Source: Escherichia coli
GTDB taxonomy: Bacteria; Pseudomonadota; Gammaproteobacteria; Enterobacterales; Enterobacteriaceae
Assembly (NCBI RefSeq): GCF_016026235.1
Contig: NZ_CP065613.1
DNA length: 64,000 nucleotides
Reading direction: 5' to 3' (one strand)
In this document: in pieces, positions 332 through 63,243 of the stretch
Layout: every line of letters begins with the position of its first letter
Position numbering within the stretch: position 1 is the first letter of the stretch
The notes under the pieces: model-generated
What the model saw: only the letters and a program-made list of their open reading frames with translations
Databases searched by the model: none
What the model was told of the DNA's origin: nothing
Made by a program: the position numbers and the translations under genes

Positions 332-1615
332 ATGGAATCCCTGACGTTACAACCCATCGCTCGTGTCGATGGCACTATTAATCTGCCCGGTTCCAAGAGC
401 GTTTCTAACCGCGCTTTATTGCTGGCGGCATTAGCACACGGCAAAACAGTATTAACCAATCTGCTGGATAGCGATGACGTGCGCCATATGCTGAATGCAT
501 TAGCAGCGTTAGGGGTAAGCTATACGCTTTCAGCCGATCGTACGCGTTGCGAAATTATCGGTAACGGCGGTCCATTACACGCAGAAGGTGCCCTGGAGTT
601 GTTCCTCGGAAACGCCGGAACGGCAATGCGTCCGCTGGCGGCAGCTCTTTGTCTGGGTAGCAATGATATTGTGCTGACCGGTGAGCCGCGTATGAAAGAA
701 CGCCCGATTGGTCATCTGGTGGATGCGCTGCGCCTGGGCGGGGCGAAGATCACTTACCTGGAACAAGAAAATTATCCGCCGTTGCGTTTACAGGGCGGCT
801 TTACTGGCGGCAACGTTGACGTTGATGGCTCCGTTTCCAGCCAATTCCTCACCGCACTGTTAATGACTGCGCCTCTTGCGCCGGAAGATACGGTGATTCG
901 TATTAAAGGCGATCTGGTTTCTAAACCTTATATCGACATCACACTCAATCTGATGAAGACGTTTGGTGTTGAAATTGAAAATCAGCACTATCAACAATTT
1001 GTCGTAAAAGGCGGGCAGTCTTATCAGTCTCCGGGTACTTATTTGGTCGAAGGCGATGCATCTTCGGCTTCTTACTTTCTGGCAGCAGCAGCAATCAAAG
1101 GCGGCACTGTAAAAGTGACCGGTATTGGACGTAACAGTATGCAGGGTGATATTCGCTTTGCTGATGTGCTGGAAAAAATGGGCGCGACCATTTGCTGGGG
1201 CGATGATTATATTTCCTGCACGCGTGGTGAACTGAACGCTATTGATATGGATATGAACCATATTCCTGATGCGGCGATGACCATTGCCACGGCGGCGTTA
1301 TTTGCAAAAGGCACCACCACGCTGCGCAATATCTATAACTGGCGTGTTAAAGAAACCGATCGCCTGTTTGCGATGGCAACAGAACTGCGTAAAGTCGGTG
1401 CGGAAGTAGAAGAGGGGCACGATTACATTCGTATCACTCCACCGGAAAAACTGAACTTTGCCGAGATCGCGACATACAATGATCACCGGATGGCGATGTG
1501 TTTCTCGCTGGTGGCGTTGTCAGATACACCAGTGACGATTCTTGATCCCAAATGTACGGCCAAAACATTTCCGGATTATTTCGAGCAGTTGGCGCGGATT
1601 AGCCAGGCAGCCTGA
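332..1615 (+). CDS. aroA: 3-phosphoshikimate 1-carboxyvinyltransferase (EPSP synthase)
   Basis: 427-aa ORF, N-terminus [35 protein letters not shown] recognised as AroA. Confidence 0.95.
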
Positions 1616-1661
1616 ATGAACAACGGGCAATAAATAGCCAAATCTTTCTTTATCAAAACGT

Positions 1662-1674
1662 CGGCACATTGTCG
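1662..1674. repeat. 13-bp target-site duplication, left copy (CGGCACATTGTCG)
   Basis: Identical 13-mer directly abuts both ends of the IS (1662-1674 and 3101-3113). Confidence 0.85.
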
Positions 1675-3100
1675 TAATGCCAGTCAGTTAAGCAACTGAC
1701 TGGCTCTTTTTCGGGGCTGTGGGGTATTTCCAGGGCCTCTCCTTTACCACTCTCGGGAAGGCCCTTCCCCTTCTCGTCGGTAATTTCACAAGTTGTCCCA
1801 TACTTGCAAGATCGCGCATCAGCTCCGGTATACGTCCCGGTGAAGCGCCCTGCAATGTCATCAGCATTCTCATCACCATTCCGCATGATTCTGAGAAACT
1901 CAGTTGATTCGGCCAGTAACCTTTCAGATGTTCCGCCATTTTAATCATCTGATATCTCACCAGATTATAAGCCAGTAAGACACCCCACAGCTCTTGCTCC
2001 ACAAGCTCCGGCTTTTTACTTCTCAGCGTCAGCCTGCTCAGTTGCATCGTCTGTTTTATCTCCCTGTATCCCAGTTCGATTTCCCAGCGATGACTGTACA
2101 GATCCGCCATTTCTCCTCCGGGGAAGCGCATGGCGTCCGTCATCGACGTCAGCAGATGGCAGACTTTTCCTTTGCGCGTCACGGTCAGCAGGCGGGCTGT
2201 CACTTCATTTCCCAGTCCCGGCCACTTTTTTCGTGCCTGCGGGCTGGTTTTCAGCTTCACCAGATGATCGCCTTTACCCAGTTTTCTGAGCTCTTCATAT
2301 TGCGCTCCCTTTCTGAGAGGTATCATCCAGTGGCGGTGTTCTCCCGCCAGGCTCCAGGCATTTAACAGTCCCAGTGAGTAATAACCTTTATCCATTAACG
2401 TCAGAGTGTTATCGCCGGTTTGTTCTATAAGTTGCTCAGCAAGCTCATTTTCGCTGTTCTTCATCGTGCCGAAGGCTGCAGCCGTCAGCAGATGGCTGGT
2501 CAGTTCCATCTGGCAGACCATTTTGACCTGCGGGTAGAGCGCCGGGTTCCCGGCATGTGTCTGGCGGGGGAAGGCTGCATCGTTCTCTGGTGTATCCGGT
2601 GTGCGCCAGAACACACCATCGATGGCCAGCAGGGTCAGGCCGCACCAGTGCGGATGCGGCGTGGCGTTATGCCAGAGCTGCGCTGTTTTCGTGAACACGC
2701 GGCGGACAGCCTCACTTCCCAGGCGCTGGCGGGCCTGAATAACGGCACTGGGGGCAACGAAGGGGCGATTGCCCGGCAGCATGATGTCCAGGCGATTCAC
2801 AATCTGGTGAAGAGGTTCTTTACGCTCAAGCGCCATGCCAACAATACACCAGACCATCATTTCGAGGGGAAGACGGCGCTTGCGTAGCGTTACAGTACCT
2901 GATTCGGCAAGGCAACGAGAGATGAGTTCGGGGTCGAGGTAATCCCCCAGAGAAGTCAGTGGGTTACGCAGAGAATCGTAACGGGATACCAGATCAAGAG
3001 CCTGTCCAATGTGCATAAAAAAATCCGGAAACAAGTGAGCGTTTCCGGATTCTTACACAGCCACTGGATCGGTCAACTGATCCTTAACTGATCGGCATTA
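1675..3100 (-). mobile_element. IS4: IS4-type insertion sequence, copy 1 (1426 bp, 18-bp imperfect terminal inverted repeats)
   Basis: Ends TAATGCCAGTCAGTTAAG (1675-1692) and reverse complement of 3083-3100 TAATGCCGATCAGTTAAG match 16/18; single long transposase ORF; length 1426 bp equals canonical IS4 as I recall it; flanked by 13-bp direct repeat. Confidence 0.85.
1688..3016 (-). CDS. insG: IS4 transposase (442 aa from ATG at 3016; ORF track extends to an upstream TTG at 3034)
   Basis: Protein begins [20 protein letters not shown]... as I recall for IS4 InsG; contains the IS4-family YREK-type C-terminal region ([16 protein letters not shown]). Confidence 0.85.
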
Positions 3101-3113
3101 CGGCACATTGTCG
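3101..3113. repeat. 13-bp target-site duplication, right copy (CGGCACATTGTCG)
   Basis: Exact repeat of 1662-1674 immediately after the right IS end. Confidence 0.85.
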
Positions 3114-3222
3114 GCGTTTTTTTTCGGACCTTGTGAGTCATTTTGATTAATGGTAGCGTCGCTTGTCAATGTAATTTGTTGATACATAATATTTATATAT
3201 GATTAATCAACGGATGATTCAC

Positions 3223-3987
3223 ATGAAGAATACTAAATTACTGCTGGCGATTGCGACCTCTGCAGCATTACTGACAGGGTGTCAAAATACCCACGGTATT
3301 GATACCAATATGGCTATCAGCTCCGGTTTAAATGCCTATAAAGCAGCAACATTAAGCGATGCCGATGCAAAAGCGATTGCCAATCAGGGCTGTGCCGAAA
3401 TGGACAGCGGCAATCAAGTCGCAAGTAAATCCAGCAAGTACGGTAAACGTCTGGCAAAAATCGCCAAAGCATTGGGTAACAATATTAATGGCACGCCGGT
3501 CAACTATAAGGTTTATATGACCAGCGACGTCAACGCATGGGCGATGGCGAACGGCTGTGTCCGTGTCTACAGTGGCCTGATGGACATGATGAATGACAAC
3601 GAAATTGAAGGTGTTCTGGGCCATGAACTGGGCCACGTCGCGTTGGGTCACTCGCTGGCTGAAATGAAAGCTTCTTATGCGATCGTTGCCGCACGCGATG
3701 CCATTTCAGCTACCAGCGGTGTGGCTTCCCAGCTTTCCCGCTCACAATTGGGTGATATCGCAGAAGGCGCTATTAATGCTAAATACTCCCGTGATAAAGA
3801 GTCCGAAGCAGATGATTTCTCCTTTGATCTGTTGAAGAAACGTGGCATCAGCACCCAGGGGCTGGTTGGCAGCTTTGAAAAACTGGCTAGTCTGGATGGC
3901 GGTCGCACCCAGTCCATGTTTGACTCTCACCCACCATCAACAGAGCGTGCGCAACACATCCGTGATCGTATCGCCTCTGGTAAGTAA
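3223..3987 (+). CDS. ycaL: putative periplasmic M48-family metalloprotease lipoprotein
   Basis: ORF 3199-3987; likely start MKNTKLLLAIATSAALLTGC (lipoprotein signal with lipobox LTGC); HELGH zinc motif present (GHELGHVALGH). Confidence 0.85.
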   Translation: MKNTKLLLAIATSAALLTGCQNTHGIDTNMAISSGLNAYKAATLSDADAKAIANQGCAEMDSGNQVASKSSKYGKRLAKIAKALGNNINGTPVNYKVYMTSDVNAWAMANGCVRVYSGLMDMMNDNEIEGVLGHELGHVALGHSLAEMKASYAIVAARDAISATSGVASQLSRSQLGDIAEGAINAKYSRDKESEADDFSFDLLKKRGISTQGLVGSFEKLASLDGGRTQSMFDSHPPSTERAQHIRDRIASGK

Positions 3988-7124: not shown

Positions 7125-7277
7125 TTCTCTAATCTGGAACTGGAAGCTGCCTCGCAGAGTTTTGAGCAGTTTTCACCCTTTCGTTAAATTCTTCTGAATG
7201 TGCCTCGGGGAACGCAAAATTCCCACCAGACAACCGCTCAACAAAGTTGCACACTTTCCATAAACAGGGAGGGGTGC

Positions 7278-23744: not shown

Positions 23745-23750
23745 AATGAA

Positions 23751-23780
23751 GGCGGCAGCAATGCCGCCTTTTCTTTTTCC
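23751..23780 (+). terminator. rho-independent terminator of mukB
   Basis: ggcggcagcaatgccgcc hairpin followed by ttttcttttt. Confidence 0.75.
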
Positions 23781-23809
23781 GAAAACTCCGTTTCTGCACT
23801 AAAAAAGTG

Positions 23810-23822
23810 GCACATTACGGCG
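23810..23822. repeat. 13-bp target-site duplication, left copy (GCACATTACGGCG)
   Basis: Identical 13-mer at 23810-23822 and 25249-25261 abutting IS ends. Confidence 0.85.
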
Positions 23823-25248
23823 TAATGCCAGTCAGTTAAGCAACTGACTGGCTCTTTTTCGGGGCTGTGGGGTATTTCCAGGGCCTCTCCTTTACCACTC
23901 TCGGGAAGGCCCTTCCCCTTCTCGTCGGTAATTTCACAAGTTGTCCCATACTTGCAAGATCGCGCATCAGCTCCGGTATACGTCCCGGTGAAGCGCCCTG
24001 CAATGTCATCAGCATTCTCATCACCATTCCGCATGATTCTGAGAAACTCAGTTGATTCGGCCAGTAACCTTTCAGATGTTCCGCCATTTTAATCATCTGA
24101 TATCTCACCAGATTATAAGCCAGTAAGACACCCCACAGCTCTTGCTCCACAAGCTCCGGCTTTTTACTTCTCAGCGTCAGCCTGCTCAGTTGCATCGTCT
24201 GTTTTATCTCCCTGTATCCCAGTTCGATTTCCCAGCGATGACTGTACAGATCCGCCATTTCTCCTCCGGGGAAGCGCATGGCGTCCGTCATCGACGTCAG
24301 CAGATGGCAGACTTTTCCTTTGCGCGTCACGGTCAGCAGGCGGGCTGTCACTTCATTTCCCAGTCCCGGCCACTTTTTTCGTGCCTGCGGGCTGGTTTTC
24401 AGCTTCACCAGATGATCGCCTTTACCCAGTTTTCTGAGCTCTTCATATTGCGCTCCCTTTCTGAGAGGTATCATCCAGTGGCGGTGTTCTCCCGCCAGGC
24501 TCCAGGCATTTAACAGTCCCAGTGAGTAATAACCTTTATCCATTAACGTCAGAGTGTTATCGCCGGTTTGTTCTATAAGTTGCTCAGCAAGCTCATTTTC
24601 GCTGTTCTTCATCGTGCCGAAGGCTGCAGCCGTCAGCAGATGGCTGGTCAGTTCCATCTGGCAGACCATTTTGACCTGCGGGTAGAGCGCCGGGTTCCCG
24701 GCATGTGTCTGGCGGGGGAAGGCTGCATCGTTCTCTGGTGTATCCGGTGTGCGCCAGAACACACCATCGATGGCCAGCAGGGTCAGGCCGCACCAGTGCG
24801 GATGCGGCGTGGCGTTATGCCAGAGCTGCGCTGTTTTCGTGAACACGCGGCGGACAGCCTCACTTCCCAGGCGCTGGCGGGCCTGAATAACGGCACTGGG
24901 GGCAACGAAGGGGCGATTGCCCGGCAGCATGATGTCCAGGCGATTCACAATCTGGTGAAGAGGTTCTTTACGCTCAAGCGCCATGCCAACAATACACCAG
25001 ACCATCATTTCGAGGGGAAGACGGCGCTTGCGTAGCGTTACAGTACCTGATTCGGCAAGGCAACGAGAGATGAGTTCGGGGTCGAGGTAATCCCCCAGAG
25101 AAGTCAGTGGGTTACGCAGAGAATCGTAACGGGATACCAGATCAAGAGCCTGTCCAATGTGCATAAAAAAATCCGGAAACAAGTGAGCGTTTCCGGATTC
25201 TTACACAGCCACTGGATCGGTCAACTGATCCTTAACTGATCGGCATTA
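23823..25248 (-). mobile_element. IS4: IS4-type insertion sequence, copy 2 (1426 bp)
   Basis: Offset of 22148 bp from copy 1; same terminal repeats (23823-23840, 25231-25248); all ORF-track translations inside it are identical to copy 1. Confidence 0.85.
23836..25164 (-). CDS. insG: IS4 transposase (442 aa)
   Basis: Identical protein to the copy at 1688-3016. Confidence 0.85.
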
Positions 25249-25261
25249 GCACATTACGGCG
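25249..25261. repeat. 13-bp target-site duplication, right copy (GCACATTACGGCG)
   Basis: Exact repeat of 23810-23822. Confidence 0.85.
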
Positions 25262-25443
25262 CGCTTTTCTTTAAACTTCTTTACATTAGGTTATGTAAAA
25301 ACGTATCGGCGTTTATATACTGAAGATAAGCCTGATGAGTAACAGGCTTGCTCGTCATACTTTCGTGAGTATTGGCGTTGTACAGGCAAGTCGTAAAATA
25401 ACAGCCTGGCTATTCAGAGTATGATAAAAACAGGGGGCAAGGG

Positions 25444-63168: not shown

Positions 63169-63200
63169 CTGATGAAACTCAGTTCAATTTACTAAAGGCG

Positions 63201-63230
63201 AAAAAAAACCCCGCAGCTGCGGGGTTTTTT
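63201..63230. terminator. bidirectional rho-independent terminator between matP and ompA
   Basis: A8-ccccgcagctgcgggg-T6 perfect palindrome. Confidence 0.85.
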
Positions 63231-63243
63231 ACCAGACGAGAAC

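Follow-up and report, generated by a model that had tools for sequence, protein, structure and literature searches.

The target sites of IS4 have reportedly been summarized by Mayaux et al. in 1984 (Gene 30:137) in the consensus AAA-N20-TTT, which was drawn from three sites, including the pheST attenuator, and which Mahillon and Chandler are said to have repeated in 1998. Both IS4 sites in the 64,000-nucleotide stretch of Escherichia coli DNA analyzed here (contig NZ_CP065613.1; hereafter, the window) fit this consensus exactly, with AAA, 20 nt, TTT, and a duplication in the range of 11-13 bp, and one of the original sites was likewise a terminator. Nothing essential differs between the consensus and the present results, which add approximately 100 sites, a rule of 3-bp gaps, G residues at positions -1 and -4, and a predictive matrix.

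Symmetric hot-spot consensus sequences are known for IS10/Tn10 (GCTNAGC) and Tn5. These elements resemble IS4 in using cut-and-paste transposases of the IS4 family with a two-fold symmetric target preference; however, they generate a fixed 9-bp duplication and make their contacts within the duplicated core, whereas in IS4 the duplication varies between 11 and 14 bp and the strongest signals flank it rather than lie within it. For elements of the IS4 subgroup, De Palmenaer, Siguier and Mahillon (2008; PMC2266710) report that the target arms on either side of the target-site duplication (TSD) are strongly conserved. The conservation of arms described below is of the same kind. The same source refers to IS231A, an IS4-family element with the target GGG(N)5CCC and AT-rich bent flanks (Hallet et al., 1994, cited in PMC2266710). 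IS231A is similar to IS4 in its symmetric GC core, AT-rich flanks, and dimeric DDE transposase of the same family, but it belongs to a different subgroup and differs in the core itself, in its shorter spacing, and in its shorter duplication (10-12 bp). Extragenic palindromes are the insertion targets of ISRm22 (IS4 family), IS1397, and IS621 (PMC1525189). The targets of these elements are intergenic and palindromic, like those of IS4, but belong to the repeated REP family, whereas E. coli IS4 uses unique terminator-like sites defined by A- and T-runs.

IS4 copies and insertion sites in the window

Comparison within the window revealed two IS4 copies forming direct repeats approximately 22 kb apart. 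The copies, their insertion sites, and the neighboring gene are as follows.

332-1615, plus strand: aroA coding sequence (open reading frame; annotated as aroA in those E. coli records whose site is empty).
1655-1661, no strand: left arm of site 1, comprising the A-run (1655-1658) and the 3-bp gap cgt (A at 70-88% at the equivalent positions of 134 independent flanks).
1662-1674, no strand: left copy of the site 1 TSD, CGGCACATTGTCG, with GGCACATT at 1663-1670 (duplication comparison and word scan).
1675-3100, minus strand: IS4 copy A, 1426 bp (sequence identity, Pfam domains, and translation).
1691-3016, minus strand: transposase gene of copy A, a single open reading frame (Pfam Nterm_IS4, 3e-33, and DDE_Tnp_1, 8e-32).
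3101-3113, no strand: right copy of the site 1 TSD, CGGCACATTGTCG (duplication comparison).
3114-3124, no strand: right arm of site 1, comprising the 3-bp gap gcg and the T-run (3117-3124), which is the U-tract of the aroA terminator.
23801-23809, no strand: left arm of site 2, comprising the A-run (23801-23806) and the 3-bp gap gtg (reconstructed-site alignment).
23810-23822, no strand: left copy of the site 2 TSD, GCACATTACGGCG, with GGCACATT at 23809-23816, one base ahead of the TSD.
23823-25248, minus strand: IS4 copy B, oriented like copy A (repeat comparison with copy A).
25249-25261, no strand: right copy of the site 2 TSD, GCACATTACGGCG (duplication comparison).
25262-25268, no strand: right arm of site 2, comprising the 3-bp gap cgc and the T-run (25265-25268; reconstructed-site alignment).

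Copy A matched an IS4 copy on an E. coli plasmid at 100% identity and the annotated K-12 IS4 (insG) at 99.6%. In total, 5,478 IS4 places were counted in 5,426 E. coli genomes. The translated transposase showed the YREK signature, Y-(2)-R-(3)-E-(6)-K, as defined in PMC2266710. The 18-bp terminal inverted repeats, TAATGCCAGTCAGTTAAG and TAATGCCGATCAGTTAAG, matched at 16 of 18 positions, and both copies were flanked by a perfect TSD of 13 bp, which fits helical-turn duplication (11-13 bp for IS4). By its identity and length, its signature, and its ends and duplications, the element is IS4 (ISfinder IS4 family, IS4 subgroup). Folding of the terminal regions showed an inward-facing 11-pair stem followed by TCTTTTT at the left end (1679-1704, plus strand; -18.7 kcal/mol, z -4.8), and a hairpin with a U7 tract immediately preceding the transposase ATG at the right end (3024-3049, minus strand; -23.5 kcal/mol, z -5.8). 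According to these predicted folds, the terminator-like hairpins at both ends would stop inward transcription from outside.

Site 1 reads tatcAAAAcgt[CGGCACATTGTCG]-IS4-[CGGCACATTGTCG]gcgTTTTTTTT and lies, with copy A, 46 nt downstream of the aroA stop codon. Site 2, between mukB and ldtD, reads ctAAAAAAgtg[GCACATTACGGCG]-IS4-[GCACATTACGGCG]cgcTTTTc. Removal of the IS and one TSD copy gave 400-bp sequences that were 100% identical to uninterrupted E. coli DNA of the aroA-ycaL region (H61) for site 1 and of the mukB-ldtD region (H73) for site 2, confirming the pre-insertion sites reconstructed in the initial annotation.

On the aroA strand, site 1 formed a 12-pair hairpin (-14 kcal/mol, z -5.3) followed by U8, and none of 200 shuffled sequences folded as well. 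The stem carried a compensating, strengthening change from G-T to G-C in another E. coli lineage. Site 1 is the intrinsic (Rho-independent) terminator of aroA. A simple terminator scan, which extends stems greedily into the T-run, missed this terminator as well as the hairpin ahead of the transposase start, and folding was used instead. In E. coli E21 (L307, approximately 2700-3420), IS200C is located directly after the T-run of the aroA terminator. Several metagenome contigs (L205, L212, L214, L218, and L224) carried IS4 within the hairpin AAAACCCCCAGCTAGGCTGGGGGTT, which is identical to the end of the E21 IS200, indicating that IS4 also lands in a terminator-like hairpin of another element.

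Both strands of site 2 folded weakly (-7.7 kcal/mol with z -1.7 for one, -7.6 kcal/mol with z -1.4 for the other), and the terminator scan reported a 5-pair stem on the minus strand. Site 2 is weakly hairpin-like and not a convincing terminator, and its weak fold indicates that an RNA-type structure is not required. The involvement of a terminator-like sequence, proposed in the initial annotation, is borne out by site 1. The terminator of mukB is a separate hairpin, GAAGGCGGCAGCAATGCCGCCTTTTCTTTTT (23748-23780), which lies approximately 60 bp upstream of site 2, is unoccupied, and ranked sixth in the window by the IS4 matrix described below.

Target preference in larger sets of IS4 junctions

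The two-end IS4 pattern was scanned in viral contigs and species-representative genomes, and its IS4-specific form in metagenome contigs. The harvest comprised 140 distinct E. coli-type IS4 flanks, grouped into 100 site clusters. Among the matches listed from the species-representative scan were relatives in Pseudomonas, Vibrio, Shewanella, and other genera, with no Escherichia, and at least 163 flanks of such relatives were kept apart as "other" and left out of the IS4 matrix. The IS4-type 18-bp end was also present in elements of Vibrio, Shewanella, Pseudoalteromonas, Comamonas, and others. Pseudomonas sp. ok272 (L115-L144) contained dozens of 145-bp non-coding MITE copies with the IS4 terminal repeats TAATGCCAGTCAGTTAAG, each located in a REP-like palindrome and flanked by a 10-bp duplication, GGGCAAGCCT or AGGCTTGCCC.

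A logo of independent flanks from viral and metagenome contigs (70 at the left end, 64 at the right end) showed A at 70-88% at positions -17 to -20, with a peak at -18, a C-rich segment from -14 to -9, and G at positions -4 (73-80%) and -1 (75-80%). The pattern was identical at the left and right ends. Thirty-four sites were fully reconstructed, nine of them from Shigella genomes encoding exactly the transposase of the window, and their TSDs were 11-14 bp long. An A- or T-run was present in 57 of the 68 half-sites; in 53 of these it lay 2-4 bp from the TSD, including 39 with a gap of exactly 3 bp. The length of the TSD rose with the A-to-T spacing (Spearman 0.64, p = 0.0008, n = 24). Individual sites had been hit again with a TSD differing by 1 bp (L211 vs. 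L202, L315 vs. L203, and strain VL40 vs. the window), and a single site had been hit in either orientation (L202/L233 vs. L298/L246).

Both window sites have the form AAAA-N19-TTTT with 3-bp gaps on each side, the A-run being separated from the T-run by approximately 20 nt. In the window, this form was found at only seven loci, with 12 matches compared with 2.6 expected, to which the two occupied sites would add two. The resemblance of the two sites in their A- and T-runs is far beyond chance, and the A-run, T-run, GC segment, and equal spacing at both sites are the general target preference of IS4. The initial annotation had suggested target choice by the transposase as one possible cause of the resemblance, and the strong symmetric pattern common to IS4 sites bears this out. 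At sites in natural genomes, survival selection (intergenic positions and positions after terminators) contributes to the pattern beside the choice made by the transposase.

A log-odds matrix was constructed from 123 half-sites, with the window excluded, and was applied symmetrically at every position for TSDs of 11-14 bp. Within the 61-kb IS-free window, site 2 ranked second and site 1 fourth, and positions with an equal or higher score made up fractions of 4e-5 and 8e-5, respectively. Because a matrix without GGCACATT ranked both sites in the top four, the general preference predicts the two insertions without that word. The first rank was taken by the bidirectional terminator between matP and ompA, AAAAAAAACCCCGCAGCTGCGGGGTTTTTT (63199-63234, scored at 63211), which is empty in the window and was occupied by IS4 in four E. 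coli genomes; IS4 in the other orientation was found at this site in none of the E. coli genomes.

Register and recurrence of the shared word

Aligned on the cuts, site 1 is AAAA-cgt-[CGGCACATTGTCG]-gcg-TTTTTTTT and site 2 is AAAAAA-gtg-[GCACATTACGGCG]-cgc-TTTTc. At both sites, exactly 3 bp separate the TSD from the A-run on its left and from the T-run on its right. The word GGCACATT is exact in both sites and has the same orientation relative to IS4. It starts at TSD position 2 at site 1 and one base before the TSD at site 2, corresponding to a shift of 2 bp; the displacement of the CGGCG segment is 3 bp, and only the A- and T-runs are in register. Thus, of the resemblance described in the initial annotation, the spacing of the A- and T-runs is real and reflects the general preference, whereas GGCACATT, although shared exactly, is out of register and is not a target feature. 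Likewise, a GC segment does belong to the general preference, but CGGCG as such does not keep its position.

Neither 6-, 7-, nor 8-mers of GGCACATT, on either strand and within 17 nt of the junction, occurred in any of the 98 other site clusters, near whose junctions only 5-mers of the word (e.g., GGCAC) were found, three times each way. The nine Shigella sites of the identical transposase also lacked GGCACATT. A larger junction set without enrichment of the motif, which the initial annotation had named as the sign of a coincidental resemblance, is what we obtained, and a target motif with this core in fixed orientation is not supported. The window contained five copies of GGCACATT, compared with 3.2 expected, and three of the five belong to the two sites. 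The remaining two (7197 and 45296) have neither A/T arms nor IS4. Recurrence with a fixed register and orientation, as a target motif with a GGCACATT core would imply, was not observed.

An 8-mer or longer word was common to 0.55% of the 4,950 pairs of site clusters when 16 nt by the junction were compared and to 0.34% when 14 nt were compared, and a few of the pairs sharing an 8-mer are probably homologous sites that remained unmerged. For a given pair, the sharing of GGCACATT is an event of approximately 1 in 200-300, which is not negligible; it is unusual, but unremarkable given that any resemblance could have been noticed. A GC-rich stem with an AT-rich center makes an 8-mer coincidence somewhat easier. 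TSDs beginning with CGGCA or CGGCG were found at 4 of approximately 110 sites, and there may be a weak extra preference for a CGGCA-type TSD start, which forms part of the word. The shared GGCACATT and the shared orientation are a coincidence and not an IS4 recognition motif.

The start of the transposase gene (3006-3016, minus strand), ATGCACATTGG, includes GCACATT, seven bases of the GGCACATT core, and we found no evidence that this match is more than chance. A resemblance of the core to the end of IS4 itself (GGCATTA) or to ATGCACATTGG was considered and dropped as unsupported outside the two sites.

Recurrent use of the sites and alternative explanations

The aroA site carried IS4 in the window orientation in 39 E. 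coli genomes and in reverse in 68, with an identical junction, and the mukB-ldtD site carried it in the window orientation in 18 E. coli genomes and in reverse in one or two. The common orientation relative to the motif, pointed out in the initial annotation, is accordingly true of the two window copies but not of the aroA site across genomes. At the mukB-ldtD site of E. coli VL40 (L306, 1-2500), the outer IS4 junction lay 1 bp away from its position in the window. The same strain harbored a second IS4 inside the resident IS4 (junction flanks ...gcagatggcag / ...ccatctgctg). In E. coli CRE444 (L320; NZ_CP166764.1, 4831500-4862000), the 22-kb ycaL...mukB segment between the same two IS4 sites was inverted, giving the order aroA, IS4, mukB(-)...ycaL(-), IS4, ldtD, with the IS4 copies mutually inverted. 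Chimeric junctions as in CRE444 were present in several unrelated-looking strains. This arrangement suggests that the 22-kb inversion was mediated by IS4 between two recurrent hot spots.

Both insertions are very probably ordinary, independent, and simple IS4 insertions into sites fitting the symmetric IS4 preference, with the 8-mer and the orientation being coincidental. The preferred site consists of an A-run and a T-run 17-20 bp apart, with the modal form AAAA-N3-[duplicated 11-14 bp]-N3-TTTT and a core that is C-rich on the left, G-rich on the right, and often dyad-symmetric; genomic sequences of such form are mostly bidirectional and intrinsic-terminator-like. As the site statistics suggest, each half of a two-fold symmetric DDE transpososome may read one arm and cut approximately 3 bp inside the run, so that the length of the TSD would follow the arm spacing. 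A broader combination, which we propose tentatively and with slightly less than even confidence, is that these half-sites act as a ruler, with the TSD equal to the arm spacing minus approximately 6, and that bidirectional terminators are predictable landing pads that seed rearrangements such as the 22-kb aroA-mukB inversion.

A role of GGCACATT as the sequence-specific recognition core of the IS4 transposase, acting in one orientation, would account for an exact 8-mer common to both sites in the same orientation relative to IS4, and the sharing of 8-mers is indeed rare (0.3-0.5% of independent IS4 site pairs). It is nevertheless highly improbable, as 6- to 8-mers of the word were found in 0 of 98 other clusters and 0 of 9 sites of the identical transposase, the arms keep their register with the cuts but the word is displaced by 2 bp, its armless copies at 7197 and 45296 are unoccupied, the aroA site carries IS4 in both orientations, and a matrix blind to the word places both sites in the top four. 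The two copies, as direct repeats 22 kb apart, might also suggest that the sites are alike by descent or through co-mobilized flanking DNA (duplication or a composite transposon) rather than through target choice. The probability of this origin is close to nil: the 13-bp TSDs of the two copies are both perfect but differ from each other, both empty sites are in place in thousands of E. coli genomes, and similarity is nil outside the segment from A-run to T-run. A composite transposon or shared descent of the sites was rejected on the basis of the distinct TSDs and the empty sites.

Recognition of DNA structure by IS4, that is, of the cruciform or hairpin formed by terminator palindromes, with the arms being merely the stem, appears unlikely, although several observations speak in its favor. 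Perfect hairpins are common among the sites, site 1 forms a strong hairpin, and REP palindromes are the targets of relatives that share the terminal repeats (ISRm22: PMC1525189). Furthermore, dyad symmetry exceeded the position preferences, with 51% complementary positions compared with 39% when right halves were swapped and with 0 of 1838 permutations reaching 51%, in a measure that assumes a hairpin axis at the TSD center and undercounts off-center hairpins, making the test conservative. However, site 2 has been used repeatedly despite its weak fold (z -1.7), and the commonest site of the harvest, ATCTTGGTTCTG, also folds weakly and is yet used. The most conserved features are A- and T-runs and single G or C residues at fixed distances from the cuts, which fits readout of the sequence or shape of the duplex, and the excess symmetry may reflect genome supply, as sequences with such arms are mostly terminators. 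Since IS4 also uses sites of weak symmetry, we favor readout of the sequence or shape of duplex DNA at the two arms, leaving recognition of an extruded structure as a minority rival.

The arm preference of IS4 was already known, and the numbers, the 3-bp rule, the link between spacing and TSD, and the matrix are refinements of it. The two insertions in the window need no new motif or mechanism. The position matrix can be used to predict IS4 hot spots, and insertion of IS4 beside terminators is predictable, one prediction from the window (matP/ompA) having been borne out in other genomes. Because IS4 has entered these two sites again and again in E. coli and Shigella, a shared IS4 position is a poor marker of common ancestry, and the two recurrent IS4 sites can mediate recurrent inversions.
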